DNA of 64,000 nt, taken from IMG/VR virus record IMGVR_UViG_3300048573_000442. One strand, written 5' to 3'. Made by a program: the position numbers and the translations under genes. Each line of letters starts with the position of its first letter. Position 1 is the stretch's first letter. Source of the stretch: a virus. Shown here in pieces: positions 13,116 through 61,021 of this stretch. The notes under the pieces were generated by a model that saw nothing but the letters and a program-made list of their open reading frames with translations, did not search any database and was not told the origin of the DNA.

Positions 13116-13127
13116 TGCAGTCAAGCC

Positions 13128-13134
13128 ATAAATA
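13128..13134 (+). promoter_or_regulatory. Late promoter core ATAAATA
   Basis: Intergenic, 32 nt upstream of ATG 13166. Confidence 0.65.
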
Positions 13135-13165: not shown

Positions 13166-13759
13166 ATGTCATTAGATCAAATTCAAACGCGAATCAGCGG
13201 CCATGTCAAAATTGTAGATCGAATTACTAACGATGTAGTTCTAGATAAGAAGAATGCGATTCATTCTCGCAACCTCGCAATTGCTTTGGCCCGTGGATTG
13301 TCAAATGAGCCAGCAGATACATTAAATCGTGGCAAATACCAAATTTTTAAAATAAAGCTTGGTAATGGCGGAACCTATATAAACTCCTCAAATGAGATTA
13401 CTTATTTGGCACCGAATGTTACTGGAACCAATAGTAATCTTTGGTCACCAACATATGAAGAGCTTGTGGATCGAGCAGATGTTTCTACCCCTTCTGAAAA
13501 CTCCGTTACATACCAAGAGAATCCTACACCAGGGAGTTCTGTCATCATTGTGGTAACAGCTACGATTGGTGCTGGCGAACCATCTGGGCAATTAGTTTCG
13601 GATACTCCAGGGCAACTCAATTCCCAATTTGCGTTTGATGAATTGGGTCTATTCACATCGGATGACCTCCTGTTATCACATTTGGTTTTTGCTCCTATTT
13701 TAAAAACTTCAACTCGCGAATTAGTTCTAACCTATACCCTGACATTATCAGTTGAATAA
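13166..13759 (+). CDS. Virion structural protein (jumbo-phage baseplate/tail family)
   Basis: Motifs KKNAIH, FDELGLF and LLSHLVFAPILKT..R.L.L.YTL are typical of large-myophage structural proteins. Confidence 0.55.
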   Translation: MSLDQIQTRISGHVKIVDRITNDVVLDKKNAIHSRNLAIALARGLSNEPADTLNRGKYQIFKIKLGNGGTYINSSNEITYLAPNVTGTNSNLWSPTYEELVDRADVSTPSENSVTYQENPTPGSSVIIVVTATIGAGEPSGQLVSDTPGQLNSQFAFDELGLFTSDDLLLSHLVFAPILKTSTRELVLTYTLTLSVE

Positions 13760-47847: not shown

Positions 47848-48414
47848 TTAGTTATCAAGACCGTACCATTTTACTACGCTGTATCTTGCTCCTTTTGTGA
47901 CAGGCAGAACTTCATGTGGATAGCTTATATTTGAATGGAAAATTATAGTTGAACCAATCGCAGGTTTAATTTTTAACGGGTTCCTCATTTCATCTTTTTC
48001 GAAATGAAGCACTAATTCCCCGCCTTCATACTCAACATTTAAATAGGTAATGGTTGTTATAAATCTCCATGGCGCGGATTTTATAAGTGTCCCACTTGCG
48101 TCTATAAACTCCGAATCCGTGTGTATCCTAAAATAAGAACTATTACTTTCATCGTATTTTAGAAATTGAATCGGTTCTACATTTTTTAATGAGAATAAAT
48201 TTTGTGTATGCCATTTAACACAAAAATCAATCCGTTCTTCTATGCTTTTGTAAACTTCGGGCGGCACGCATATGTTTTCTGAAGTCCTGAAAGCTTGTGA
48301 GTTTCCTAAATTGTAAACTGTTGATTTTGATTTATCAAATCCCTTAATAGCATTGATAATAGTTTCACATTGCGAAATAGTAAAAGTTTGAATATTTAGG
48401 TGACTTTTAATCAT
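47848..48414 (-). CDS. 2OG-Fe(II) dioxygenase, prolyl-4-hydroxylase (P4H/PKHD)-type
   Basis: HTD, ITYLN..YEGGEL, HEV.PVT.G.RYS. Confidence 0.88.
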   Translation of the reverse strand: MIKSHLNIQTFTISQCETIINAIKGFDKSKSTVYNLGNSQAFRTSENICVPPEVYKSIEERIDFCVKWHTQNLFSLKNVEPIQFLKYDESNSSYFRIHTDSEFIDASGTLIKSAPWRFITTITYLNVEYEGGELVLHFEKDEMRNPLKIKPAIGSTIIFHSNISYPHEVLPVTKGARYSVVKWYGLDN

Positions 48415-48415
48415 G

Positions 48416-49075
48416 CTAATTTAATGACCCTTGGTAGTTTATCGGGGCGAAATGGCAAAACATACCAAGTACCCATTCGAGACTTGTTGGCATTTGCGGT
48501 CTACCGTGTAACGTCCTGGTCCCCGAATAAACAAAAGCGTCCCCGGGATTTAAGTTTGCGTTAATTAAACCATTTTGCGTTTGTAAAATAAGGGGCCATT
48601 CTTTTACCTTCGAATTATCAGAAGAATCAATTATTATAGAAACGTTCCATGTACATGCAGGCCTTCCGTCAACGTGAAATTGAAGACCCGAACCTTTTTT
48701 ATAACATGCGGTAAACGTATATGAGGGCTTTGCATCTTCTGGCAGAATGGATTTTATAAACGGTGCTATGAGCTCGTGGACAAATCTTGACAGCGGCGCA
48801 TTGTGGGAAGCAGTTCTATTTGTTTCAACTGTTTCAACTGTTTCAAATACAATTTGCTGATTTCCGAAAAAAGATTGGCTAATTAAATCGCAACATCCCC
48901 GCGTCAAAAGGTTTGGAATAAGAACTCCCCCATTAAGAGCGAGGCCCTGTTTAAGCAAGCTGGTGTCATATAAAGTTCTTTCCTCTATTAGGTCAGAAGA
49001 AGGCAAATTGATTTTTAGGCCATGATGGTACGGCCAATGAACTTCTCGAGATTTCAAGCCATCAAATTTATTCAT
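48416..49075 (-). CDS. 2OG-Fe(II) dioxygenase (type common in marine/cyanophage islands)
   Basis: Y.KGS.L.FHVD..C..NVSI, WPL, L.PGDA..YSG...HGR. Confidence 0.82.
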   Translation of the reverse strand: MNKFDGLKSREVHWPYHHGLKINLPSSDLIEERTLYDTSLLKQGLALNGGVLIPNLLTRGCCDLISQSFFGNQQIVFETVETVETNRTASHNAPLSRFVHELIAPFIKSILPEDAKPSYTFTACYKKGSGLQFHVDGRPACTWNVSIIIDSSDNSKVKEWPLILQTQNGLINANLNPGDAFVYSGTRTLHGRPQMPTSLEWVLGMFCHFAPINYQGSLN

Positions 49076-49892
49076 ACAGGATTTTCTTATAGAAGCTTCT
49101 TATGGAGTTGTAATCATCTTTATCAACAAATGCTTTATCTAATGCTTTATGAAAAACAGCGTTTCCCCGTTTTGCACACTCGGATTGTATCCTATATATA
49201 TTATCGCTATTGTTAGGAAGCTGACTCCTTATGGTCTTCAAATAATTTATGGGGAGAAGATCAAAAATCAGATGCGTTCTATATTCTTTTCCGAAATTTA
49301 TCGCTGAATGTGGATCCATGTTGTTAATTATATAATTACTATCAACATCGAGGTTATCAAATTCATGGATCTGGAAATTGATGTCAGTTTTAGTGTTTGA
49401 GCAATATTCGTTACTGATTATCGGTATGTGAATTTTTTCTGCCCATTTATGGGCCACGTAGCCATCGACATGTGGCCTTAGCACTTCTCCGGGACCCAAA
49501 ACAGATAGGCATACAGAAGAACCCTTCCATTTTTCGCCTGTTGATGATTCAAACAAAACAATAAATTTGCTTATTATTGATCTTATTGAAGCCAACAATT
49601 CTTCATCAAATTCGAAACCGGCATCACTATATGGAGCGTTTCTATCTAAATTTCCGACTATTTCTTCAATAGCCGGTATGATTCTTATCGTACTAGTAAA
49701 AGCTTTTTCATTACAAATATCTTTAGAATTAGCAAAATCATAATTTAATAAGAATTTTTTAATACGCTCTTTTTCAGAAGAGATTTCTACTTCATCAAGT
49801 ATTTTTATAAATGACGGCTGTTGAGTCAAAAAACTTTGGAAATCGTGATTATGCTTAAACTTATGCTGATGTAAAAATTTGCTAACTATCAT
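49068..49892 (-). CDS. Asp/Asn beta-hydroxylase (AspH)-family 2OG-Fe(II) dioxygenase
   Basis: L.PG..L.PHVD, IHIPI, NN..PHSA.N.G...RTHLIFD. Confidence 0.85.
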   Translation of the reverse strand: MIVSKFLHQHKFKHNHDFQSFLTQQPSFIKILDEVEISSEKERIKKFLLNYDFANSKDICNEKAFTSTIRIIPAIEEIVGNLDRNAPYSDAGFEFDEELLASIRSIISKFIVLFESSTGEKWKGSSVCLSVLGPGEVLRPHVDGYVAHKWAEKIHIPIISNEYCSNTKTDINFQIHEFDNLDVDSNYIINNMDPHSAINFGKEYRTHLIFDLLPINYLKTIRSQLPNNSDNIYRIQSECAKRGNAVFHKALDKAFVDKDDYNSIRSFYKKILYE

Positions 49893-51486
49893 ATTTCACC
49901 TCGTATAGGAAGTCCCCAAAAACAAACCATTTTAAGTTATTTGTTTTGCAGAAGTTGAATAAATCAGAGAGGGTATTTATAAAACCGCGCCCATTAAAGT
50001 TCAACGATGTATTACAAAGAACGCCGTACCCAGATAGTTCTTTAAAATCTTTTAATAAAAAATAAATTTTTTCATTTTGAGTTTTCGTGACGGTTTGAAT
50101 CCTGGCGCTGTTATCTATATGAGTTACGCCAGGAAGCTTGTCAGTTTTTAATTTTTCAAAGAACAGCATATATGGCGATTCGTATCCTGTTGGCACGTCA
50201 AAGTGCAAACTTGCATCTTCCTGTAAAACCATTGGGGCAACCGGACGGTAAGATTCTCTCTGTTTGATAGTGTTTAGTTTATTTTTAATGTCAGCATTTA
50301 ATGGCGACGCAAGTATAGATCTATTTCCGAGAGCTCTCGGACCTATCTCCGCTCTACCTTGAACAACGGGGATTATTTCCCCATCAAATAAAAGCTTAGC
50401 TATTAATTTACTATTATAGTCGCGCTTTGTTATAGAATTTTCATCAATATTATCGTAAAATGGGGCTTCTCCAGCATAAACATCCCATTTTATTTTAGCA
50501 GACCCTGTTATTCTATACTGCGCCTCAATAGCAGTGCCGATAGATGATCCGGAGTCGTCTGTGCATGGAGCCACAAAAACATCAGAGAACAATTTAGTTT
50601 CTCTTAATGCTGTATTCCAATCGCAATTTAACCCGCAGCCCCCAGAAATAAGCAGCGGAATATTTTGTTTTACGTAGGGCCTGATTTCAGTGATAATATG
50701 TTCTATTATCATATCAGAAAACAGTTTTGCAAAATCGCAAAAAAGTTGATCAGTTACTTTTAGCGGTAGAATTCCAATATGATTTAGCTCATTTAAAACG
50801 AATTGTACTTGCTCACTAGTTTTTCTTTTTATCACGAATTGGCGTATCATTAATTTAATAGAGTTTTTATATTTTTCTATTAAAGATTTATCCAGTTTGG
50901 ATAAATCTGCAAATGATATAAGGGCCATCAGTTTACCGGCCCCTCCATTGTCTATTATGGATGGCTTTTTAAACTTTACGGTGTTGTAAAGAGCGGAGTA
51001 AAGAGTTCCAATTGCATTTATATTTACATCGCACTTGACAATGTTCAAATTTTCGGTTATATAGTAAAAATTGCTTATAGCTCCCTCATAAACCAGGCAA
51101 TACGCCCTTTGCCCATTTTCGTAAGGGGACATTCCATATGCTTGCATAATATGGGATAGTTCATGAGTTGATTGAAACAGCTTTACGTTATTTCCAAACA
51201 TTTCGACGTCAGTGATGCTGTAATTAGTATTTAAAATATCGGAATTATTTGATACTCTGTATCCAAGCCCCTCTGTTTTGGTGTCTTCATAATGCCATCC
51301 CGAAATACAAAATATATTAGGGAATTTTTTACAATGTTTTGCAGTTTCAACAAATGTAATTGGAGATAAGTTTGTGTATCTCAAATTATTATTTTTTTCA
51401 GATTCAAACAGGCCTATTAATTTGTTACTGGTTTCATCTATTAATGCGTAACTACCATTATGAGAATTTTTTCCGCTAAATATCAT
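49882..51486 (-). CDS. O-carbamoyltransferase (CmcH/NodU/TobZ family)
   Basis: HELSH, GKLMAL, SGGCGLN, DDSG..IG, QGRAEIGPRALGNRSIL, K.RE.YRP.AP, TH.D.SAR.QTV and NTSLN. Confidence 0.93.
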   Translation of the reverse strand: MIFSGKNSHNGSYALIDETSNKLIGLFESEKNNNLRYTNLSPITFVETAKHCKKFPNIFCISGWHYEDTKTEGLGYRVSNNSDILNTNYSITDVEMFGNNVKLFQSTHELSHIMQAYGMSPYENGQRAYCLVYEGAISNFYYITENLNIVKCDVNINAIGTLYSALYNTVKFKKPSIIDNGGAGKLMALISFADLSKLDKSLIEKYKNSIKLMIRQFVIKRKTSEQVQFVLNELNHIGILPLKVTDQLFCDFAKLFSDMIIEHIITEIRPYVKQNIPLLISGGCGLNCDWNTALRETKLFSDVFVAPCTDDSGSSIGTAIEAQYRITGSAKIKWDVYAGEAPFYDNIDENSITKRDYNSKLIAKLLFDGEIIPVVQGRAEIGPRALGNRSILASPLNADIKNKLNTIKQRESYRPVAPMVLQEDASLHFDVPTGYESPYMLFFEKLKTDKLPGVTHIDNSARIQTVTKTQNEKIYFLLKDFKELSGYGVLCNTSLNFNGRGFINTLSDLFNFCKTNNLKWFVFGDFLYEVKYDS

Positions 51487-51989
51487 TTAGCCCCCTTGTT
51501 ATTTTTTATAATCAGTTTCCATGGAGAGATATCTGTTTCATCATGGACGATTACTATGCTTTTTACAGATTTTTTTATATTTATCGTGTGCAATAAGGCA
51601 GTTTGTTCTTTGGTAAGATTTATAGTTCCACCTTCAGAAATAATGTATTTTTGTTGCCCTATCGTTAATTCCCCCTCACCAGATAAAAAGAACAATGTTC
51701 TGTTGCAAATCCCATCTAATAAATTGTTTGGGTAAAATGTGGAATTATGAAGTTCTGGATTTGTCGCACTAACGACAAAGGATTCTTTTATTTTATGATT
51801 TTCTGGAATTAGCGATTTGCAAAATTTTTCATACTCTAGAGCTAAACTGTTCGAGTTTGGATCCAAAAAATGAAATAGGACTAATGCATGGGCACAATAA
51901 TTTTTATCGCTCAAAAAGTATCTAGGGACGTGAGGAATATCATCCCTAAAGTATACGGCGCCCAAAATGTTCAGGAAATTATCAGCCAT
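51483..51989 (-). CDS. Hypothetical protein, possible cupin/beta-barrel
   Basis: FLSGEGELTIG..KY.I.EG cupin-like strand pattern. Confidence 0.4.
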   Translation of the reverse strand: MADNFLNILGAVYFRDDIPHVPRYFLSDKNYCAHALVLFHFLDPNSNSLALEYEKFCKSLIPENHKIKESFVVSATNPELHNSTFYPNNLLDGICNRTLFFLSGEGELTIGQQKYIISEGGTINLTKEQTALLHTINIKKSVKSIVIVHDETDISPWKLIIKNNKGAK

Positions 51990-53535
51990 GCGAAACCAAA
52001 GATTTAAAATATGTATTGTACTTAGCGTTCATATGATAAGACAGAAGATGGTAATTTAAAAAGTTTTTGTTAGCTATGATTTTTTTATTAGAATACCCTA
52101 AAGTATTTAGGTACGGGATGCTGAAAGCAATATCAAATGATCTGCCTATGCTTTTCATGTATGAATTTACTTCTTTATGAAGATCATTACATCCTTTTTG
52201 AGAGGTGCCGTATAATTCGTTTTTCCAATTACCGTCTGGCAGAATTTCATACCCGTATTTTATCGAATTTATTTCAAATTCAGATTTGTTGATCGCTTCT
52301 CCCCCACTACGTAAACCCAATTCATTAAAGGATACGGTGTGGAGAGGAAAATTAAAATCAACCACTCTTTGTACCCAAGCCTCCATTGTTTCGTATGTGT
52401 CGTACGGAAGCCCTAAAATAAAGCCGCTCATTGTATAAACACTATCCCCCCAGGACTCTCTGCATTTATAAAGTGTTTCAATATGTTTTTCGATATTTCC
52501 GCCTTTTCCTATACAAGCCGCCGCTTTTTGGTTTAATGTTTCCATTCCAAATATTATTGACACGCAGCCCAAGTCTTTTATAAGTTGTATTTGTTCGTTA
52601 TGAGCCCCTATTAAATCTAACCTGGCGTAAGAAGCAAAATTAAAGTCAAATGGCAGTTTTCCAACAACTTTTAAAAGCGTTTCCAATTTTTTGGTTGAAT
52701 CATTAAAAGTGTCATCAGAAATTACATATTTCGTTATTCCCCATTTTTCATAATTTTCCATGAGCTCTGAATATAAAACATCAGGTTTTTTTAAATAGTC
52801 GTTTTTAGATTTTCCATTTAACGGGAACGCACAAAATTTGCATTTAAAAATACATCCCCTGCTCACTTCAATAGGAAGCACTTCCCCTGGTTGAATACAG
52901 TCACTCGTTTCATATTTAATAATAGATGAGCAAAAATCAAAACCGTCGGCTTTAGGGTTGTTGTTCACTATTCTTTGACCATTTTCTAATTTCGGCATCC
53001 AAAAAGGATTTTTTTTGTCTTTATATTTTAGGTAATCAGCTACCTGAGTTTCTGAATACCCTAAAAATTTATAATCAGATATATGGCCATCTGATTTATC
53101 TGCCTGCGCCCCGCCGATAATAAAGTCGCAATCCGTTTTTTTAGTTTTTACATATCGTTTAAGATCAATCAGCTGATTCCATGGTAAATAGAAAGGGTTG
53201 TCTGATATCACATGAGAAGACTTTAAATTTCTAGTATTATTTTTCTCGGCACGATTAAAATAAATCTTATAGGAATTAGAAAAAAACGTGGATGAAAAAC
53301 CGACAAACATAGTGTTTTCATTCATGAACTTATCCAATAATAACTTAACAGGATCCGTATTTTCTAATGTTAATATGTTCCAACCTTCTATTACCTGAAC
53401 CTCGATTCCAAGTTTTCTAAATTCGGAAGCTATTCTGTAGGCTCCAGCTGTTCTGTGCCTAATTACGCCAGATAGTTCTATGCAATCGTTAAAAATGATG
53501 CCATTTTTGGGGGCCATTTCATTTTGTTGGTTCAT
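51982..53535 (-). CDS. B12-binding-type radical SAM enzyme
   Basis: N-terminal Rossmann-like domain (GAYRIA..., VGFSSTF, IIGG); CxxxCxxC in EVSRGCIFKCKFC; DDTFN, GMET and GFILGLP. Confidence 0.88.
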   Translation of the reverse strand: MNQQNEMAPKNGIIFNDCIELSGVIRHRTAGAYRIASEFRKLGIEVQVIEGWNILTLENTDPVKLLLDKFMNENTMFVGFSSTFFSNSYKIYFNRAEKNNTRNLKSSHVISDNPFYLPWNQLIDLKRYVKTKKTDCDFIIGGAQADKSDGHISDYKFLGYSETQVADYLKYKDKKNPFWMPKLENGQRIVNNNPKADGFDFCSSIIKYETSDCIQPGEVLPIEVSRGCIFKCKFCAFPLNGKSKNDYLKKPDVLYSELMENYEKWGITKYVISDDTFNDSTKKLETLLKVVGKLPFDFNFASYARLDLIGAHNEQIQLIKDLGCVSIIFGMETLNQKAAACIGKGGNIEKHIETLYKCRESWGDSVYTMSGFILGLPYDTYETMEAWVQRVVDFNFPLHTVSFNELGLRSGGEAINKSEFEINSIKYGYEILPDGNWKNELYGTSQKGCNDLHKEVNSYMKSIGRSFDIAFSIPYLNTLGYSNKKIIANKNFLNYHLLSYHMNAKYNTYFKSLVSHG

Positions 53536-54109
53536 AGATATCCACTATCAAAGAATACCTAGAAAGCTCCGAATGGTTTTTTACTTCATGAATTCTTAAG
53601 TTATCAAAACACCAGACTTCCCCCTTTTTAATAGAAAAATCAGCACCACCAACAGTAAAAATGGCCCGTTCGGTGTTTTGTAGACCTATCTGTAATCTAT
53701 GATGGTGGGAATAGTATTCCCCCCGGTCTAAATGGGGAAGAACCTTTGCAAAAGGTTTCATTATTGACAGATAAATTTGCCCAATATGCTGAGATTTATA
53801 AAATCCTTTACAAATTTCAATAATATTGTTTAGTTCTGGGTGAAGATTATAATACTTTTTATCTAGATAAAAAGTATTATTCGTTATTTTGCTAAAATTG
53901 ATCGCTGGATTTTTACCTTCATCCCATACCGAAGACCTCGATAAATTAATAAATGTCCTACCTTCTTTAAGAGCAACATCATTAGCTACTCTCCAGTCAG
54001 AGTTATTAATTAAATTTATTTTTTCATATAATTGATCTATTAGTCTTTCATCCAGTGTATGGATTAAGTAAAACGGCGTTTTTTCTTTCATATTTCGCTC
54101 ACATCGCAA
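53519..54109 (-). CDS. AspH-family 2OG-Fe(II) dioxygenase
   Basis: PHLD, HHRLQI, GEVWCFDN..IHEV.N and RYSLIVD. Confidence 0.88.
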   Translation of the reverse strand: MRCERNMKEKTPFYLIHTLDERLIDQLYEKINLINNSDWRVANDVALKEGRTFINLSRSSVWDEGKNPAINFSKITNNTFYLDKKYYNLHPELNNIIEICKGFYKSQHIGQIYLSIMKPFAKVLPHLDRGEYYSHHHRLQIGLQNTERAIFTVGGADFSIKKGEVWCFDNLRIHEVKNHSELSRYSLIVDIYEPTK

Positions 54110-54651
54110 ACTATTGAATACCTAATCGTGCTATCTTTATTTTGAACGCTGTGCGTTTTTTGATTATCAAAACACCAGCATTCTCCCGTTTTCATATTTA
54201 CAATTTCTCCGCCAACACAAAAATCAGCATTTGAATCTGATCCATTTAGCGCTATTTGAATTCGATGATGAGCTAAATAATATGGTCCCCGGTCTATGTG
54301 CGGGTGAACTATTGAACCCAATTCCATCTTTGAAAGATAAACTTGTCCAAAGTGTTTAGCGCCATACAGATCCTTTATTTTAAAAATGATTTGTTCGACA
54401 TTTGGGAGCCTAGTCAATATTTTGCAAAATTGAAATGTTCCAACTGAATCACTTGACGCGCCGCTTTTATAAGGAGTGGACACCCATAGTGGAGAATCCG
54501 TAATGCTGATGTATTTTCTCCTATCGTTTAATATAGAAAGTTTAGATATTTTCCAATCAGATTCTGTTAACGCTTTGACTTCTGATAAAGCAGCGTCAAC
54601 TAAATCATTGTCTAATTGCGCAACCAGTTTTAAGGGCTTTAATTCTATCAT
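54088..54651 (-). CDS. AspH-family 2OG-Fe(II) dioxygenase (paralog of 53519-54109)
   Basis: PHID, HHRIQI, GECWCFDN..THSV.N and RYSIVCD. Confidence 0.88.
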   Translation of the reverse strand: MIELKPLKLVAQLDNDLVDAALSEVKALTESDWKISKLSILNDRRKYISITDSPLWVSTPYKSGASSDSVGTFQFCKILTRLPNVEQIIFKIKDLYGAKHFGQVYLSKMELGSIVHPHIDRGPYYLAHHRIQIALNGSDSNADFCVGGEIVNMKTGECWCFDNQKTHSVQNKDSTIRYSIVCDVSEI

Positions 54652-55244
54652 AGTGATAATTCTTCTTTTAAGGTGTATGATTTATTGGCCAAAGCCCGGT
54701 CATTTACTAGCATTTCATGACTTGACGGAGTTGTAAAATCTATAATCATATGTATTCTTACGGAATTATGAGTATTTTTTGCAGTGTGGATTTTACGATT
54801 GTTAATAATCCACACTTCATTTTGTTTCATTTCGCATTCAACTGCGGTGCCATCTTCATTAATATTTGCGTAATAGCTCCCCTCGCTTTTAAGCACAACA
54901 TGAGTGCGTCTGCAAAGAGAATGAAAATAAATCCTATCGCTGTGGGGATACACTGCAGAGTTGGGTTTTACAAAACTTAACTCTATTCTATATGGAACCA
55001 ATCCTTTTAAATCATCATATTTTTGCAATTCTTTTAAAATAGGCGCGCACCGTAAAAGCGCAATATTATCATACGGTTTTCCGTTGGCTACAGGAAGTAT
55101 TAATCTACAATCGTCTCTATTAAAAACTGTTTCCGTTCTTTTCATCGCGTTATCAACACCTACTGTTTGACAATACGAAGAAAGATCGTTTATAAGTTCT
55201 TCTTCTAATACGCCCAAACGCTTATTGTAAAATGTTTCGTTCAT
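54648..55244 (-). CDS. AspH-family 2OG-Fe(II) dioxygenase
   Basis: PHSD, RRTHVVL, EVW.INN.KIHTA.N and RIHMIID. Confidence 0.88.
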   Translation of the reverse strand: MNETFYNKRLGVLEEELINDLSSYCQTVGVDNAMKRTETVFNRDDCRLILPVANGKPYDNIALLRCAPILKELQKYDDLKGLVPYRIELSFVKPNSAVYPHSDRIYFHSLCRRTHVVLKSEGSYYANINEDGTAVECEMKQNEVWIINNRKIHTAKNTHNSVRIHMIIDFTTPSSHEMLVNDRALANKSYTLKEELSL

Positions 55245-56011
55245 GATAAAAGATTTCTAAATTCATTTGTAAATTTTCCATCAATTCTTAAGCTCCAAGT
55301 CATTGATGGAAAAGCATCGGCTCCGTGAATATCAAAACTGTTAAACCACGAAGATTGCCCCCTTATATAATGCTTTGTATTTGTAGCTTCGTCTAACACA
55401 TAAAATGGTTTACTATTTTGCTTGGGCCTAATCCATATAAATTCATGCTGATGTGGTTTATCAGCTATATAATCTCTTGTTCCATTGGCATGATGTAAAT
55501 CACTGTGTTCAGTTACAACGCAATAATGCTCATTAACAAAAAATAATACTCTTCCTATTTCAGAAAAAGGTAATTTATAAATCCAGTTTATAAGGTTTGG
55601 AAAATATTTCTTATTTTCGTCCCAGTCGGTGTGAAGTTCTTTATCCAATAATTTGTAATCATTGGTCCTGATGTTTCTTATGTAGACGCTGTAGCCAGCG
55701 TTATACAAATTATATTTTAACTTTAGGTATAACCTTTTTTGATTAAGAGTCATTCCGTTTGTTGCGGCCATAATTGAATCGTAATCTTTATGCTTTGGGA
55801 GCCCCCCTCTATTATAATAGCTTCCACCCTCTAGATTGTAAAGATCTTCTTCCCTCTTCTCGAAAACGCCAGGGCCCCAGCTACCAGCAACCGTGCTGCT
55901 TCTAGAAAGGCCAGTTATAATTTCTTCGGTAAGGTTGTTAAATTCTTCCACATTGATAAAAGAATCTAATTCTATCATTGGCTTATTAAAAATGCCTTTC
56001 ATTTTATCCAC
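55241..56011 (-). CDS. Putative 2OG-Fe(II)/cupin dioxygenase
   Basis: IGRVLFF, EHSD (HxD), DIHGAD (distal His) and SLRIDG.F. Confidence 0.65.
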   Translation of the reverse strand: MDKMKGIFNKPMIELDSFINVEEFNNLTEEIITGLSRSSTVAGSWGPGVFEKREEDLYNLEGGSYYNRGGLPKHKDYDSIMAATNGMTLNQKRLYLKLKYNLYNAGYSVYIRNIRTNDYKLLDKELHTDWDENKKYFPNLINWIYKLPFSEIGRVLFFVNEHYCVVTEHSDLHHANGTRDYIADKPHQHEFIWIRPKQNSKPFYVLDEATNTKHYIRGQSSWFNSFDIHGADAFPSMTWSLRIDGKFTNEFRNLLS

Positions 56012-57027
56012 TCCAAATCTATAAAATCGCCATCTACCAACATATCGAACGGGTGTTTTTTCATAAAAAACTCGTTCGATTCATATCTGTTAGTTTCCCT
56101 ATTCAGTTTAAACCACGGGTTTAAACCTATAACTAAAGCTATTCTTATATCCTCTTCTTTATATTTTTTGGAATCGTCCCATGCGGCCCTATGCAGCTTT
56201 GTGGTATCCCAAGAATGCCCTAAAAATTGTTCGAAGTAGAAATTGCCCAGCAATTTATCTTCTAGATAAAAATTGCTATTTGTCAATAATGGGATATTGA
56301 TTCTAAAATTAGTAAAATACGATTCATCGGAGTGCCACAAATATTCTTTGTCGTATTTAGAAGAAGAAAATCCAGGCCTTAACAGTGCGCATCTGCTTCT
56401 TACTATATCACATTTAAATTTAGATAAAAAATCGCCCCAATATCCCGTTGAAACGTTTGGGGTCAATTTGTTAAATCCCCATGTGTCAAAATAACTATTC
56501 TTGACAGTTAAGTCGACGCTGCGGTAAGACGTGTCTGGTGGCAGTTCTATATTAAATCCTTTAGTTCGCGCGTATTTTACGCCTTCGAGTATACCTTTTG
56601 AAGCGATTAAATTATAAAAATAAGTTGTTTGTTTATATTCTTCCAAATATATAAACAATTTTATCCCTTCCGGAGTATTAAAAATCGGTTTAAGATTTAT
56701 TTTTTCCATTCCGAGGGAGCTAACATTTGCGTCTACGTTCATGTCCGGATTATATGTTACGCTAAACCCGCCGTAGGTTTTGCTTCTATTTTTTGACTGA
56801 GAAACGCTAGACGTAAAACCCTGAAACTCATTTTTTTCCAATATCTCATTGGTATGGGATAATACTTTTGAAAAATCTACATCCTTAACCTTGTATTGAA
56901 AATATCTATCAGGTTTATGAATAGGCTCAAATTTAAAGTTTTTGTCAATTCCGCACTTTTGTTCCATGTAAGTGTGCAAATTCAAATTTGCTGGAACTTC
57001 ATCTTTAGCAAATGAAAATGATTTCAT
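55999..57027 (-). CDS. Putative AspH-like 2OG-Fe(II) dioxygenase with long N-terminal extension
   Basis: RSR.A.L.PG, WHSDE, RINIPL.T, WDT.KLHRA and RIALVIG. Confidence 0.72.
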   Translation of the reverse strand: MKSFSFAKDEVPANLNLHTYMEQKCGIDKNFKFEPIHKPDRYFQYKVKDVDFSKVLSHTNEILEKNEFQGFTSSVSQSKNRSKTYGGFSVTYNPDMNVDANVSSLGMEKINLKPIFNTPEGIKLFIYLEEYKQTTYFYNLIASKGILEGVKYARTKGFNIELPPDTSYRSVDLTVKNSYFDTWGFNKLTPNVSTGYWGDFLSKFKCDIVRSRCALLRPGFSSSKYDKEYLWHSDESYFTNFRINIPLLTNSNFYLEDKLLGNFYFEQFLGHSWDTTKLHRAAWDDSKKYKEEDIRIALVIGLNPWFKLNRETNRYESNEFFMKKHPFDMLVDGDFIDLEWIK

Positions 57028-57028
57028 A

Positions 57029-57790
57029 TTATTTCTTTCTTAATAGGCAAATTACTAAATAAGACAAATCTATTTCATACCATTTTTTTGCAAAATTTGG
57101 ATTGCCTGGGTCCTTATGATGGTTATTATGTAAAGATAGGCCAGCAGTAAAAAACGATAATGTCCAGATATTTCTAGAGTTATCTTTTGTTTCAAAGGAT
57201 CTATACCCAAAATGCTTTAAATGACAGACCGTATTAACCAAATAATTTAAATGTGATGAAAAAATAACTGCTAGAATATAAGAACCGAAAAAACGTGTTG
57301 AGAAAACAGAATCAAGCCCAATTAATAATATTGAAAACCCGTACAAAATTACATATTGATTATTATGCAATTTCATTAGAAATTTGTCTCTTAGTAAATC
57401 TGGGGCTTTTCTATATGCAGAGGTTAAATTTTCTTTCAAGAGCCATAAAAAATAACTATGCAAAACCCCTTTTGTCGGTGTATGTGGATCCTTTTCTTGG
57501 TCTGCATAGGGGTGGTGAACCCCCCTATGAACAGCTGCCCAAAAGAAAGCTGTTCCCTGCCCCCCAAGGCTTCCGATAAGTATAAGCGCATTTTTAATCC
57601 ATTCAGGCGTAGAAAAAGCTTTATGGGCAAGAAGGCGATGTATGCCTATTTCTATCGAAAATTGAATTAAGAATAGGAATATTAAAGTGGCTACAGTGTT
57701 AAAGCTTCCCATGAACGCAACAAATATAAAAATAATGTTAGTAGGAAGAACCCATTTCCAAAAATGGTTCAAATTGAAAATAGCTTTCAT
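57029..57790 (-). CDS. Membrane-bound fatty-acid (delta-9-like) desaturase
   Basis: Three His boxes HRLLAH, HRGVHH and HNNHH; DPHTP; multiple TM helices. Confidence 0.92.
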   Translation of the reverse strand: MKAIFNLNHFWKWVLPTNIIFIFVAFMGSFNTVATLIFLFLIQFSIEIGIHRLLAHKAFSTPEWIKNALILIGSLGGQGTAFFWAAVHRGVHHPYADQEKDPHTPTKGVLHSYFLWLLKENLTSAYRKAPDLLRDKFLMKLHNNQYVILYGFSILLIGLDSVFSTRFFGSYILAVIFSSHLNYLVNTVCHLKHFGYRSFETKDNSRNIWTLSFFTAGLSLHNNHHKDPGNPNFAKKWYEIDLSYLVICLLRKK

Positions 57791-58359
57791 TTTATGCTCA
57801 ATCTTATTGTCGTGTCTATTGGATAGTATCTTTTTCCGTATAAAGAATCCCAGAAGAAGGAAAATTTTGGTTTTGCCATTGCAGGAACATTTTCAATTTC
57901 GAAAAGTTTATATTCGGCTCTAGCTGGCAGTTTAGACCATATTTTTTCGTGGGCCGCCTTATATTTAGTAGGTATTAAATTGTAATGCTGGTAAAACCCC
58001 AATTTTTCAGTTTCTTTTAAAACGTGAGTAAACAATTCCCCCATATAATACAAAGAATTTTCAGAAGATTTATTTTCTTCGTGTGTTATCATTCTACGTA
58101 ATATCCAAAATGGCAATGAGTCGCTAAATTGCACATTTATTGAACTCAAAAGGTCACCATTATCATCTATGAGCCCATAGGACCTGAACAATAAATTGTT
58201 ATTTAGGAAATAGCAATTTTTTACAGTTTCATTTACGCTTGGATTGTTGATTAGTTCTTTTAGTACTTCTTCGTCTTTTATTCCGAAAAAGGATTTTTGC
58301 GATTGAACCAAATTAGAGTATTGCAGCCAATTATCGATTGTTAATTGAATTATTTTCAT
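57787..58359 (-). CDS. Putative GNAT-fold acyltransferase
   Basis: About 190 aa with a GNAT-like secondary-structure pattern (YGLIDDNGDLLSSI.V, W.LRRM, GELF..VL..E..GF); no definitive motif. Confidence 0.4.
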   Translation of the reverse strand: MKIIQLTIDNWLQYSNLVQSQKSFFGIKDEEVLKELINNPSVNETVKNCYFLNNNLLFRSYGLIDDNGDLLSSINVQFSDSLPFWILRRMITHEENKSSENSLYYMGELFTHVLKETEKLGFYQHYNLIPTKYKAAHEKIWSKLPARAEYKLFEIENVPAMAKPKFSFFWDSLYGKRYYPIDTTIRLSIK

Positions 58360-59260
58360 ATGTTGATATAAGTTGTTTCACTGGTATATATGTGGTATCT
58401 GGAACACAAAGATCGCATTCATTATAAATTCTCTTATTCGTCATAGACAATCTATCTAATATAGATTCAGTTCCTGTCATTTTGTATCTTAAAGATAGGC
58501 CCATGGCTTCTCTAAAAATGTAAGGTTTTATAGCAGATGATGTCAAAGTTTCAGACTGACTAAACAAATGCTTCATTCTTCTAGTATTTATGAAAGAATA
58601 AAAAAGCTCAGGCGAGTATAATATAAAGTTTGGACAACCAACCTGCCCATTTAAATAAAATGCTTTCCACCAAGAAAACGTGTGCTCTCTTACGCAGTAA
58701 TACCAATCGAAATCCTCTCCAATTTTTTTACATTCAAATACGGGGTCATCTCCAAGTATAAGATAGGAAGATTTTGATAATAATTCTATAGCTTTAAGAT
58801 AAGGCGCATAACCAGATTGTGAAGACTGATATTTTTTGCATAAGTCAAATGATTCCCCCGAGTCGTGTAAGTTAACAACATCTAATTCTATTACATGCAA
58901 TTTGAGATTAAAACCTTTAGCAAAACTGATAGCTTTATTTTTGTCATAACTATTAAATCCGAAATCCAAAAAGACTAAATCGGGAACCTTTCCGTATAAG
59001 AGAAAGGATTTAGCTATGAACTCGCTATCTATTCCGCCAGAATAGAGGATTGACATGTTGGAAACGCCATAGTGCTCGTCCATTATGTTCGCTGTTATAA
59101 TAGCTTCTTCATTAAATCCGTAATTTTTTCTAATTGATGGGTTGAATGAGAATTTCATGACATCATTCACATGGGACCTTTTATTAAAGAATCCATCGTT
59201 GTACCCTATTTTAACATAATCATCCCATGTAAAGCTTTGCTTCATAATTTGACAATCCAT
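58331..59260 (-). CDS. PP-loop ATP pyrophosphatase (asparagine synthetase C-terminal/QueC-like)
   Basis: ILYSGGIDSE PP-loop; C-terminal K..I.R......R.K.TG.E similar to AsnB-type proteins. Confidence 0.7.
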   Translation of the reverse strand: MDCQIMKQSFTWDDYVKIGYNDGFFNKRSHVNDVMKFSFNPSIRKNYGFNEEAIITANIMDEHYGVSNMSILYSGGIDSEFIAKSFLLYGKVPDLVFLDFGFNSYDKNKAISFAKGFNLKLHVIELDVVNLHDSGESFDLCKKYQSSQSGYAPYLKAIELLSKSSYLILGDDPVFECKKIGEDFDWYYCVREHTFSWWKAFYLNGQVGCPNFILYSPELFYSFINTRRMKHLFSQSETLTSSAIKPYIFREAMGLSLRYKMTGTESILDRLSMTNKRIYNECDLCVPDTTYIPVKQLISTYENNSINNR

Positions 59261-60813
59261 TAAAATTTACCAGTGCCGTCCCAAGTTGGTGTAGGAGTTG
59301 GTGTAGGAGTTGGTGTAGGAGTTGGTGTAGGAGTTGGTGTAGGAGTTGGTGTAGGAGTTGGTGCCGCAACATACGGCCAAACCTGGACCCACACGTTAGC
59401 CACAGTGTAAAGCATTAATCTTCCCTGTGGCGATAATGAAGTGCTACTGTCGTACCAGGTTTGACCTGCTTGAGGATTTGAGGGGGGCGAACTGTTTGCT
59501 TGGTGGTTTATAGCATTTATAGCATTTTTCACAAATGCCGTAGTTGCAATAGTCGTATCATTCGAAGCAATGTTTGGCGTAGGGGCAGTTGGTGCGCCCA
59601 ATAATGACACAGTTTCAACTGGTGCACCAAGTATGATCGTGCTAATTTGCGCGTTTTTGCTTTTGGATATTACCTTACCGTGGGTATTATCATAAATCCC
59701 GATTTCATTGTCGCTATTATACAAATACGCTTGAGATGCATTTGTTCCAGTTTTTTCAACCAGCACTCTCGCTTCACTATTACCAACTTGCTTAATTACT
59801 CCATTAAACGTTTTATTGCCGTCTATCGTCTGATCGCCAGTTAAGTTGACCGTATCTGCATTCACTCCCAAATTCACCCGCGCAGTTGCTGCATCTGTTG
59901 CACCAGTCCCGCCATTAGCGATAGCAACAACGCCGATCACGTTTTCTGAAGTTCCTGGCACATGTGTAACAGCAGAACCAATTTCTCCCCAAGAAGTAAA
60001 AACTTGCTGTGCTTTATCCCTTAGTACCTCAACCTGCGTCAAACTTGCATTAACGCCATCGGGCATTAGTACCTTTAAAAACATTCTGAAACTTCCGCCA
60101 GTAGTACGATTGATAACCGTCCAAACTTTTTTATACGTGTTGGGGAATATCAGCGTCACATCAGAAGTTAAAACGCCATTAAATATGAAAATTGGGTCAA
60201 CTGCGGCTTCAGGGCCTATATAAAGCGTCGGTCCACTATGCGCAGTCAAATCTTGTATCTGAACACCGTTAACGACGCTATGAACGAAAGCAGTAGTTGC
60301 AACCTGAGTCGTTTCAGTAGTAGCAATCGGTGTGGGAGACGTAGGGATCCCAGTGAGTGCTGGAGAATTGACATCGGCTTTGGGGGCAACTGCGTCTACA
60401 ATTGCTTGTTGCAAGATTGCTGCAGAATCTGCAATCTCTTGCTGGAGATCAGAAACAATTGTGCCTAGAGCAGAAGACTGCCAAGCTCGAACCCAACCTA
60501 TTGCTCCACTGGTAAAGTAAACATTTGTTTCTGCGGTAACTGTGGCGGTTTCAACACAAAGATACAGCGCTTTGTCCACAGGGCTGAACCAAAGCTGACC
60601 AATTGTTGGGTTTGATGGCGCAGTATTAGATGCGAAATTTTCAAGCAGCTTAATAAAATTCTCTTGTTGAATTTTACCATAACTAGCGGTGCCTTTGCCA
60701 GTAAGCTTTAAAGAAGTTGAAGTTGCATCAGTTGTCCTCTCCGGGACAATGATAGAAGATTTTCCAGGAATGCCTTCAGTTCCGGCACTTTCCCAATCAA
60801 GATTGTATGTCAT
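59260..60813 (-). CDS. Tail-fibre-like virion protein with C-terminal (PT)13
   Basis: Jumbo-phage virion N-domain (L.G.G...YG..Q.ENF..LLENFA...P..P..GQLW); two tail-fibre repeats (SPALTG.PT.PT......T.ATTAFV); GGTGATDAATAR.NLG; AGGAG RBS. Confidence 0.8.
   Translation of the reverse strand: MTYNLDWESAGTEGIPGKSSIIVPERTTDATSTSLKLTGKGTASYGKIQQENFIKLLENFASNTAPSNPTIGQLWFSPVDKALYLCVETATVTAETNVYFTSGAIGWVRAWQSSALGTIVSDLQQEIADSAAILQQAIVDAVAPKADVNSPALTGIPTSPTPIATTETTQVATTAFVHSVVNGVQIQDLTAHSGPTLYIGPEAAVDPIFIFNGVLTSDVTLIFPNTYKKVWTVINRTTGGSFRMFLKVLMPDGVNASLTQVEVLRDKAQQVFTSWGEIGSAVTHVPGTSENVIGVVAIANGGTGATDAATARVNLGVNADTVNLTGDQTIDGNKTFNGVIKQVGNSEARVLVEKTGTNASQAYLYNSDNEIGIYDNTHGKVISKSKNAQISTIILGAPVETVSLLGAPTAPTPNIASNDTTIATTAFVKNAINAINHQANSSPPSNPQAGQTWYDSSTSLSPQGRLMLYTVANVWVQVWPYVAAPTPTPTPTPTPTPTPTPTPTPTPTPTWDGTGKF
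59284..59363 (-). repeat. Perfect 12-bp tandem repeat (GTTGGTGTAGGA x6 + partial) encoding (Pro-Thr)13
   Basis: Direct reading of 59285-59363; codons CCA ACT CCT ACA repeat without variation. Confidence 0.95.
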
Positions 60814-60888
60814 TTTTTCTCCTGCGCCGGCTCACAAAAATTGTACAGCTAGGATAGACCGGTACACCACGCTGCGTTTGCATGATAG

Positions 60889-60896
60889 TATTTATA
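60889..60896 (-). promoter_or_regulatory. Late promoter TATAAATA heading the fibre + enzyme operon
   Basis: Exact T4 late consensus 76 nt upstream of ATG 60813. Confidence 0.75.
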
Positions 60897-60905
60897 TTGG
60901 AACCC

Positions 60906-60948
60906 AAAAACAACACAGGCCGTTGTCCTCCTTTTGAGCAACGGCCTG
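60906..60948 (-). terminator. Rho-independent terminator after phoH
   Basis: 10-bp stem CAGGCCGTTG/CAACGGCCTG (60916-25/60939-48) followed on the - strand by TGTTGTTTTT. Confidence 0.75.
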
Positions 60949-61021
60949 GTCCAAGTGATTAATCGAAAAGTCCTTTAAGGGTTAGAAATGCTTTTTTAAT
61001 CTGGCAATCTCCTTTCAATGG

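Follow-up and report, generated by a model that had tools for sequence, protein, structure and literature searches.

This report concerns a 64,000-nt stretch of viral DNA (IMG/VR record IMGVR_UViG_3300048573_000442), hereafter the window, and a gene island on its minus strand at 47848-60813, which is filled by 15 open reading frames (ORFs), g01-g15. The first of these encodes a tail-fibre-like protein with an unusual C-terminal tail, and a first-pass annotation had proposed that the 14 genes behind it, read mostly as tailoring enzymes, form a pathway that decorates the fibre. The enzymes probably do modify the fibre tip, because the pairing of such an island with such a tail recurs in unrelated phages and, with a small peptide in place of the fibre, in bacteria. 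The features of the island are as follows (aa, amino acids; 2OG, 2-oxoglutarate; SAM, S-adenosylmethionine; AF2, AlphaFold2).

59260-60813, minus strand: g01, fibre-like protein, 517 aa (PHROG tail-fibre families, E down to 5e-17)
59284-59361, minus strand: (Pro-Thr)13 repeat of g01, in 12-bp units; linker and candidate prolyl-hydroxylase target (sequence)
59263-59283, minus strand: WDGTGKF heptapeptide ending g01, candidate modification site (corresponds to the ...GGK ends of loci L107, L023, L024, L188 and L232)
58331-59260, minus strand: g02, PP-loop ATP pyrophosphatase, Asn-synthase-domain-like, 309 aa (motif and predicted structure)
57787-58359, minus strand: g03, predicted GNAT-fold acyltransferase, 190 aa (AF2 model and Foldseek)
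57029-57790, minus strand: g04, membrane di-iron desaturase with Delta9/SCD-like His boxes, 253 aa (Pfam FA_desaturase, PF00487)
55999-57027, minus strand: g05, viral family with a possibly AspH-like C-terminal half, 342 aa (Atlas structural lead)
55241-56011, minus strand: g06, 2OG/Fe(II) dioxygenase, 256 aa (conserved residues and AF2 model)
54648-55244, minus strand: g07, Asp_Arg_Hydrox-type dioxygenase, 198 aa (Pfam PF05118, 35 bits)
54088-54651, minus strand: g08, Asp_Arg_Hydrox-type dioxygenase, 187 aa (Pfam PF05118, 49.7 bits)
53519-54109, minus strand: g09, Asp_Arg_Hydrox-type dioxygenase, 196 aa or 190 aa (Pfam PF05118, 58.5 bits)
51982-53535, minus strand: g10, radical SAM enzyme resembling B12-type methylases, accessory, 517 aa (Pfam Radical_SAM, 61 bits)
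51483-51989, minus strand: g11, orphan protein, 168 aa (open reading frame)
49882-51486, minus strand: g12, O-carbamoyltransferase of NodU/TobZ/NovN type, accessory, 534 aa (Pfam Carbam_trans_N and Carbam_trans_C)
49068-49892, minus strand: g13, Asp_Arg_Hydrox-type dioxygenase, 274 aa or 253 aa (Pfam PF05118, 28.4 bits)
48416-49075, minus strand: g14, cyanophage-type 2OG oxygenase-like protein, 219 aa (phrog_2954, 4e-20)
47848-48414, minus strand: g15, prolyl-hydroxylase-like 2OG oxygenase, 188 aa (Pfam 2OG-FeII_Oxy_3, PF13640, 61 bits against a cut-off of 27)

The fifteen genes are packed as the first-pass annotation had described. With longest-ORF starts, the successive junctions measure -1, -29, -4, +1, -13, -4, -4, -22, -17, -8, -4, -11, -8 and +1 nt (range -29 to +1), while public gene calls begin g06, g09 and g13 further downstream and so open a 53-nt gap ahead of g13. 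The TAA of g01 shares one base with the ATG of g02 (TAATG at 59258-59262, again as first claimed), and an overlap of fibre-gene stop and g02 start is also found in a related phage locus, L024. GC content is 0.32-0.36 in the island genes (0.41 in g14), against 0.445 in the fibre gene and 0.40 in the window. The drop was considered as proof of a foreign origin of the island and rejected as weak, since GC content at third codon positions differs only modestly (0.26-0.35 against 0.33-0.46).

The reading of g01 as a tail-fibre-like protein with a (PT)13 end also held up. It matches several PHROG tail-fibre families, its N-terminal 85 aa resemble proteins of the jumbo phages RsoM2USA and Atu_ph07, and its C-terminus is AA(PT)13WDGTGKF. 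Contigs of the same phage from different samples (L008-L016) vary in PT copy number, with 11 copies in L010, 13 in L008 and 15 in L009. Length changes by whole 12-bp units, each encoding two PT pairs, between identical flanks. WDGTGKF itself is identical across all contigs of this phage despite the varying number of repeats.

Most of the first-pass enzyme calls were supported by domain or fold searches. By its motif and predicted structure, g02 is an adenylating PP-loop enzyme of the Asn-synthase-like kind: across 37 homologues, S74, G75 and G76 of its SGGxDS motif do not vary, and D78 and S79 are conserved in at least 90%; its Atlas structure matches viral and Asn-synthase clusters with template modelling (TM) scores of 0.6-0.85 (0.60-0.71 for the Asn_synthase clusters). 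It has no Pfam or NCBIfam match above cut-off, and its family numbers 377 representatives at E<=1e-3. The g03 protein is, on its modelled fold, a GNAT of the type that acylates amines: the AF2 model has a confidence score (pLDDT) of 93.5, and Foldseek matches it to SpeG and other GNATs with probability 1.0 and TM up to 0.69. FA_desaturase matches g04 at 1.4e-18 (68 bits against a cut-off of 29.7), and the protein has transmembrane stretches and all three His boxes, namely HRLLAH, HRGVHH and HNNHH (HxxxxH, HxxHH and HxxHH).

Family calls in the island include eight HxD...H dioxygenases, among which g05 is only a structural lead. Five of them, g05-g09, had been called AspH-like or cupin dioxygenases. 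This stands for g07, g08 and g09, which exceed the Asp_Arg_Hydrox gathering cut-off of 22.6 bits, and for g06, which has no Pfam match, Asp_Arg_Hydrox included, and is a 2OG oxygenase by its invariant residues (H169, D171, H229 and R242) and its modelled fold, a double-stranded beta-helix matching proline hydroxylases and AspH. It does not fully stand for g05, which likewise has no Pfam match, Asp_Arg_Hydrox included, and whose AspH-like character is a lead from structural comparison; its syntenic counterparts in L024 and L188 are 40-42% identical, and the L188 counterpart of g06 is 50% identical. The further AspH call, g13, passes the same cut-off and has homologues in L024, L107 and L188. 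The g14 call as a phage-type 2OG oxygenase agrees with its PHROG match, and its L107 homologue (34% identity) adjoins the L107 homologue of g15. For g15, called a prolyl 4-hydroxylase (P4H), the Pfam match is joined by a best solved relative in the human P3H1 catalytic domain (E 3.7e-6), with an alignment that spans H-x-D, the distal H and R.

The remaining three genes fared differently. The g10 protein had been called a B12-type radical SAM enzyme; the radical SAM core is there, with its CxxxCxxC motif, while Pfam detected no B12-binding domain at E<=0.01, and the best NCBIfam matches, which are to B12-type radical SAM families (PhpK, HpnJ and lipid radical SAM), cover the core only and lie far below cut-offs. 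The 'cupin-like' label of g11 found no support: the protein has no family match at the Pfam, PHROG or NCBIfam level and no homologue in any related locus. Both carbamoyltransferase domains of g12 were found, Carbam_trans_N at 97.5 bits and Carbam_trans_C at 180.7 bits, and its relatives in the PDB are NovN, GdmN and TobZ.

The link between tail and enzymes comes from the closest homologous islands. All PP-loop loci above about 110 bits were examined, two of which (L189 and L190) lie on contigs too short to judge. Every one of the six independent islands with a PP-loop protein of at least 139 bits follows a gene with a Pro/Gly-rich C-terminal tail. These islands are syntenic homologues at 31-50% identity, on contigs with GC contents of 0.45-0.70, and in each close locus the tailed gene lies 0-1.3 kb upstream of the module on the same strand. 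What recurs behind the tail-ending genes is a core set of PP-loop enzyme, GNAT, desaturase and several Fe/2OG dioxygenases, with or without a prolyl-hydroxylase-like gene.

Four of the islands are phage-type. L024 (GC 0.50, from a phage with an SU10-type adaptor) carries g02-g03-g04-g05-g06 and three AspH genes at 32-44% identity, and its island overlaps the stop codon of a gene whose product, a collagen-repeat protein of 245 aa, ends ...QCGGK. L107 (GC 0.53) has a 510-aa fibre with Phage_tail_fib and Collar domains, Pro-rich repeats and the end ...VEVGGK. Behind it come genes for a 196-aa protein and a P4H-like enzyme, then g02, g03 and g04, and after these two radical SAM genes, some AspH genes and genes resembling g15 and g14. 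The tailed protein of L023 ends (APTGSP)n...VPVGGK and precedes a 183-aa protein (homologous to the 196-aa protein of L107), a P4H-like gene, g02, g03 and g04. L025 (GC 0.53) encodes a pair of fibre-like proteins, both with (SPVP)n...PPG ends (...VPPG twice), then a P4H-like gene, g02, g03, g04 and g06.

The other loci are of a cellular type. L188 and L232 (GC 0.70) are probably cellular because they adjoin giant RHS proteins, and they have the order g02-g03-g04-g06-g05-AspH-g13 at 31-50% identity. A small ORF of 64 aa or 60 aa, ending ...RAEGGK or ...RADGGK, lies 50-55 nt upstream of g02; between the two loci it differs by an in-frame 4-aa deletion and conservative changes, with the frame and the GGK end kept. 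A further locus, P0154, shows the same order behind a 69-aa ORF, then an S9/DLH-type hydrolase, with sigma-70 and TPR neighbours. From their arrangement, these loci resemble classical precursor-plus-enzymes clusters, in which the 60-69-aa ORFs look like precursor peptides. The window, L023, L024, L025, L107, L188, L232 and P0154 all have a ribosomal candidate precursor beside the enzymes.

Open frames that end in GGK are rare. Across 172 loci, only 7 of 45,778 frames of at least 25 codons do so, and 4 of these 7 are the genes just upstream of four of the closest islands. The tailed proteins are mutually non-homologous except for the N-termini of the L025 and L107 proteins, so the association is with the tail and not with a single kind of fibre. 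Of these loci, those with a P4H-like gene are precisely the four whose tails carry (Pro-X)n repeats (the window, L107, L023 and L025), and the readable portions of L024 and L188 have none; this circumstantial match makes action on peptidyl proline a candidate role for g15. Some of the other genes are not always present: L024 lacks radical SAM, g11 and carbamoyltransferase genes, L107 lacks g11 and the carbamoyltransferase, and the L188 island has no carbamoyltransferase.

These comparisons adjust the earlier picture, in which (PT)13 and the whole 14-gene set made up the pathway. By their distribution among the loci, the PP-loop enzyme, GNAT, desaturase and 2OG oxygenases are the conserved core, and the radical SAM enzyme, g11 and the carbamoyltransferase are accessory. 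The conserved determinant appears to be the C-terminal G-G-K-like end, and (PT)13 looks like a linker that is perhaps a P4H target. The proposed tie between enzymes and fibre is strengthened by the pairing in all six closest islands and weakened by the distant relatives described below.

With about even confidence, we propose that the island is a post-translational tailoring system resembling those of ribosomally synthesised and post-translationally modified peptides (RiPPs), with the C-terminal extension of the upstream-encoded fibre as its substrate. (PT)13 would be a flexible linker, hydroxylated by the P4H/P3H-like oxygenases g15 and perhaps g14. The PP-loop enzyme (adenylation) and the GNAT (amine acylation) would attach an adduct, as an amide or acyl group, to the ...GTGKF end, with the Lys epsilon-amine or the C-terminal carboxylate as the most plausible site and Lys as the obvious nucleophile. 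The desaturase, AspH-like dioxygenases, radical SAM enzyme and carbamoyltransferase could then elaborate the adduct by desaturation, hydroxylation, C-methylation and O-carbamoylation, and expression together with the fibre from a late-type promoter would yield a chemically decorated fibre tip. In the phage version, the peptide end would be fused to fibre-like proteins via Pro-rich or collagen-like linkers, and in the cellular version it would be a stand-alone 60-69-aa ORF.

We also put forward, as possible but rather doubtful, a bolder form of this proposal: that some phages and bacteria share an undescribed RiPP-like pathway that installs a lipid-like or polyhydroxylated adduct on a Gly-Gly-Lys-type C-terminus, which in phages is fused via a hydroxyproline-type linker to the fibre end, so that the tip is a small-molecule or lipid warhead and not a folded domain. 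Full-text literature searches on phage fibres, prolyl hydroxylases, RiPPs and this enzyme combination returned no description of such a system.

The wider PP-loop family was surveyed by alignment-based scans, which gave 80 IMG/VR and 80 metagenome loci with PP-loop homologues at 21-33% identity (L027-L186). A desaturase homologue is present in 67/80 IMG/VR and 38/80 metagenome loci, often in multiple copies (up to eight desaturases in L064 and L075), a GNAT homologue in 35/80 and 10/80, and a radical SAM homologue in 28/80 and 14/80. AspH-like, g05 and g06 homologues occur in fewer of these loci, and several paralogues per locus are common. Well over 100 uncultured (aquatic) viral contigs carry the PP-loop/GNAT/desaturase module. 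Directly upstream of the PP-loop gene, 18/80 IMG/VR and 13/80 metagenome loci encode an acyl carrier protein (ACP) of 71-87 aa with a GLDSLD motif (PP-binding, E 1.5e-10). Because the ACP takes the position of the tailed gene in these distant relatives, the module may work on a tethered group, which would be the phosphopantetheine thiol in ACP loci and the peptide end here. A search for Pro-rich tails ahead of each of the 197 PP-loop genes found repeat tails only in the closest clade; the more distant loci have neither Pro-rich nor GGK tails in that position.

Other searches yielded few matches or none. Tblastn with g02, or with a distant homologue, gave no match (E<=1e-3) in 50,697 GenBank phage records, and g10 gave none in the same records; megablast of the island against GenBank phages was also negative. 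Single-protein IMG/VR scans with g02, g05 and g12 gave nothing useful, and a g06-based scan returned only tandem g06 paralogues in another context. The g04 desaturase is found in GenBank phage records only in Pelagibacter phage Mosig and one metagenomic Acinetobacter phage. Mosig (L187, 54.7-72.5 kb), a cultured pelagimyophage, has an enzyme island of about 18 kb beside putative tail fibre genes, with two AspH genes, an N-acetyltransferase, a TauD-like gene, a desaturase, aminotransferases, a MoaA-like radical SAM gene, a carbamoyltransferase and methyltransferases. Among GenBank phage records, the nearest carbamoyltransferase (41% identity) is on an unverified 7.4-kb faecal contig (L006, MT837218.1), between a nitroreductase-family gene and a major facilitator superfamily (MFS) transporter, in what looks like a bacterial small-molecule cluster. 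A GTDB genome scan found only distant PP-loop homologues, mostly in metagenome-assembled genomes (MAGs) of Bdellovibrionota, and no GGK tails. These loci (L191-L227, 21-27% identity) come from many Bdellovibrionota MAGs, some Alphaproteobacteria, Thermoanaerobaculia, Archangium and a Nitrososphaerales MAG, and some of them adjoin desaturase and AspH-like genes. The homologues could lie in prophages or reflect binning artefacts.

Other arrangements of the family were also seen. Related T4-like marine phages (L044, L046-L049, L051, L054, L065, L071, L150 and L172) encode, downstream of a PAAR-like gene and mostly about 1.5 kb upstream of the PP-loop module, a protein of about 850 aa with a Pro-rich end and ...CNCDCW(NL/VQ/TV), which may be a second type of C-terminal motif. 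L017, L018 and L019 have a 27% identical PP-loop homologue near a GH108 endolysin, together with the closest radical SAM protein found there (39.5% to g10). Their PP-loop gene is preceded by an overlapping gene for a 243-aa protein, which in L017 has no Pfam match, and L151 has a similar 242-aa protein with a P4H-like gene; when g03 and g11 were compared by pairwise BLASTP with the genes around the PP-loop gene of L017, no match was significant. At P0010 (JGI 3300050046), a PP-loop homologue stands beside a desaturase, an FAD oxidoreductase (DAO) and a deoxyhypusine synthase homologue (PF01916), the last of which hints, as a lead only, at lysine or polyamine chemistry.

Several of these observations weigh against fibre-tip tailoring. 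About 150 distant PP-loop loci have no tailed protein ahead of the module, and 31 of 160 have an ACP gene there instead. Other aquatic phages, e.g., Mosig, have enzyme islands near fibre genes with no tail motif. The close loci number only about six independent cases, with L188 and L232 near-identical, and their ends are not uniform: the tail in the window ends GTGKF and those of L025 end PPG, not GGK. Bacterial members of Asp_Arg_Hydrox include the lipid hydroxylases LpxO and OlsC, and desaturases of the g04 type are integral membrane enzymes of acyl chains, which is awkward for a soluble fibre substrate. A complex prediction of g02 and g03 with the last 45 fibre residues scored 0.00 and weighs neither way.

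Much of this would suit a lipid or small-molecule pathway, or remodelling of the host envelope, in which the fibre is not the substrate. The PP-loop enzyme, GNAT and desaturase would act on an acyl- or aminolipid-type molecule, on an ACP or in the membrane, with LpxO/OlsC-like hydroxylases, a lipid-type radical SAM methylase and a NodU-like carbamoyltransferase as the tailoring enzymes. Adjacency to the fibre would then mark a hypervariable accessory region, or co-selection of receptor-modifying genes with a receptor-binding protein. We think this unlikely, and it stays alive because of the roughly 150 distant loci that lack a tail and the 31 of 160 that have an ACP. The frequent, often multicopy desaturases beside PP-loop genes fit it, as do the Delta9-type His boxes and transmembrane stretches of g04, the hopanoid and lipid radical SAM families among the best NCBIfam matches of g10, the resemblance of g12 to NodU, the nitroreductase and MFS neighbours of the closest GenBank-phage carbamoyltransferase, and the similar Mosig island beside fibre genes. 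It leaves unexplained the GGK ends, which stand on non-homologous proteins or a 60-64-aa ORF ahead of the closest islands and make up four of only seven such frames, and the match of P4H genes to (Pro-X)n tails, and the fully packed island of the window contains no ACP gene. That the island is instead a patchwork of auxiliary genes unconnected with one another, like the islands of cyanomyoviruses, with a separate host or phage target for each gene and a packing due only to phage economy, seems to us improbable. Cyanomyoviruses do carry many 2OG-Fe(II) oxygenase and carbamoyltransferase genes (PMC3037559), the GC content of the island below that of the fibre gene fits separate acquisition, g11 is an orphan, and radical SAM and carbamoyltransferase genes come and go among loci. 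Against this, the order g02-g03-g04-g05/g06-AspH is kept at 31-50% identity across GC contents of 0.34-0.70, and PP-loop, GNAT and desaturase genes co-occur strongly in over 100 loci. Conserved order and strong co-occurrence together argue for one pathway, at least for the core.

A last alternative concerns g12, which, with some of the oxygenases, might hypermodify phage DNA, e.g., by converting 5-hydroxymethylcytosine to 5-carbamoyloxymethylcytosine. A 5-hydroxymethylcytosine carbamoyltransferase of the same family has been characterised from a metavirome (PMC8670742), and the phage of the window encodes a thymidylate-synthase-family protein. That protein, full-length at 337 bits, lies beyond the window about 5 kb upstream of PhoH (2117-3067 of L008). 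The nearest Thymidylat_synt gene is about 15 kb from g12 in L008, against within 3 kb in the characterised case, and g12 overlaps g11 and g13 inside the island. Its best solved relatives are natural-product O-carbamoyltransferases, and L107, L024 and L188 have the island with no carbamoyltransferase. We regard this explanation, which could account for only one gene, as very improbable.

Late expression with the fibre, as the mechanism above would have it, was also part of the first-pass annotation, and both of the upstream signals it named are present at the level of motifs.

60904-60951 (hairpin about 60912-60951), minus strand: putative intrinsic terminator, hairpin and U-tract 3' of PhoH (RNA fold)
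60889-60896, minus strand: TATAAATA, T4-type late-promoter-like motif (motif match, 75 nt ahead of the fibre ATG)

The hairpin folds at -23.1 kcal/mol (z -1.9) and, with its U-tract after PhoH, would be a terminator that insulates the operon. The fibre ATG has an AGGAG Shine-Dalgarno sequence. Exact copies of TATAAATA are not enriched in the window (4 observed against 4.8 expected), and 3 of the 4 sit in spacers upstream of minus-strand genes. On the plus strand, CATAAATA occurs at 2199-2206 and 13127-13134, 32-34 nt ahead of two structural genes (one of 2901 aa, the other at 13166), so the late promoter of this phage may be NATAAATA. Given the intergenic TATAAATA copies and the CATAAATA copies ahead of structural genes, a late-type promoter before the fibre gene is plausible on motif evidence. 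A second exact TATAAATA (49974-49981, minus strand) falls in the 3' end of the carbamoyltransferase gene, with the g13 ATG 82 nt downstream of it. This copy could serve as an internal late promoter or have arisen by chance in AT-rich DNA. The region after g15 shows no terminator; a sigma-70-like promoter precedes the RNA ligase gene there.

By its gene content, the window is part of an uncultured T4-like myovirus. It also encodes rIIA, a gp41-type helicase, a baseplate wedge protein, a split DNA polymerase, two RNA ligases and PhoH; the best cultured relatives of the helicase are from jumbo phages, e.g., Ralstonia phage RsoM2USA (46% identity). The same phage was recovered from several Joint Genome Institute (JGI) and Logan samples, on assemblies reaching 198 kb.

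If the enzymes do tailor the fibre tip, protein sequence would not be the sole basis of host recognition, which would also depend on a group added after translation. This would be a new means of determining host range, of shielding against proteases or immunity, or of engaging membranes. Part of the unexplained pool of 2OG oxygenases, desaturases and carbamoyltransferases in aquatic phages would gain a function, and bacteria and phages would have a new peptide-tailoring pathway in common. The module is widespread in uncultured viral contigs, yet its PP-loop gene is unmatched by tblastn (E<=1e-3) in GenBank phage records.

Among known systems, the 5-hydroxymethylcytosine carbamoyltransferase found by MetaGPA within 3 kb of a thymidylate synthase homologue (PMC8670742) shares its two-domain family with g12. 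Unlike it, g12 has no thymidylate synthase homologue within about 3 kb and is embedded in a tailoring operon. The islands of aquatic T4-like phages are closer in composition: cyanomyovirus 2OG-Fe(II) oxygenases and carbamoyltransferases are many, with no role assigned (PMC3037559). Like the island here, the cyanomyovirus and Mosig islands combine Asp_Arg_Hydrox, 2OG oxygenase, FA_desaturase, N-acetyltransferase, carbamoyltransferase and radical SAM genes near fibre genes. They differ in that a link to a tail motif is not described for them, and the PP-loop gene of our island has no tblastn match (E<=1e-3) among the 50,697 GenBank phage records.

Virion glycosylation in mycobacteriophages is the subject of Freeman et al. 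(2023, Cell Host Microbe), which PMC12619734 cites; the glycosyltransferases there reportedly act on capsid and tail-tube proteins. There, as proposed here, phage enzymes encoded next to structural genes decorate virion proteins; here, however, the enzymes are of oxygenase, acyl, adenylate and radical SAM types, with a fibre-tail target predicted from genes alone. Viral prolyl and lysyl hydroxylases that act on proline-rich or collagen-like virion proteins include the PBCV-1 prolyl 4-hydroxylase and Mimivirus L230. The likeness lies in a virus-encoded 2OG oxygenase of P4H, P3H or PLOD (lysyl hydroxylase) type together with Pro-rich or collagen-like fibre repeats. Those are giant eukaryotic viruses with one or two such enzymes, whereas this is a bacteriophage with 14, and the conserved motif here is a C-terminal G-G-K-like end.

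RiPP clusters with GNAT lipidation, or with multiple hydroxylation and C-methylation, are known from selidamide-type lipopeptides and from proteusins such as the polytheonamides. The island differs from them in that a PT linker joins the 'core' to a virion fibre of 517 aa, in its PP-loop/Asn-synthase-like enzyme and membrane desaturase, which are atypical of RiPPs, and in being known from genes alone. In both, a gene-encoded peptide end adjoins a GNAT, Fe/2OG hydroxylases and a radical SAM enzyme, which is of B12 type in the known clusters and resembles that type here in its core, and the cellular-type loci described here have the form of a 60-69-aa ORF followed by enzymes and a hydrolase.

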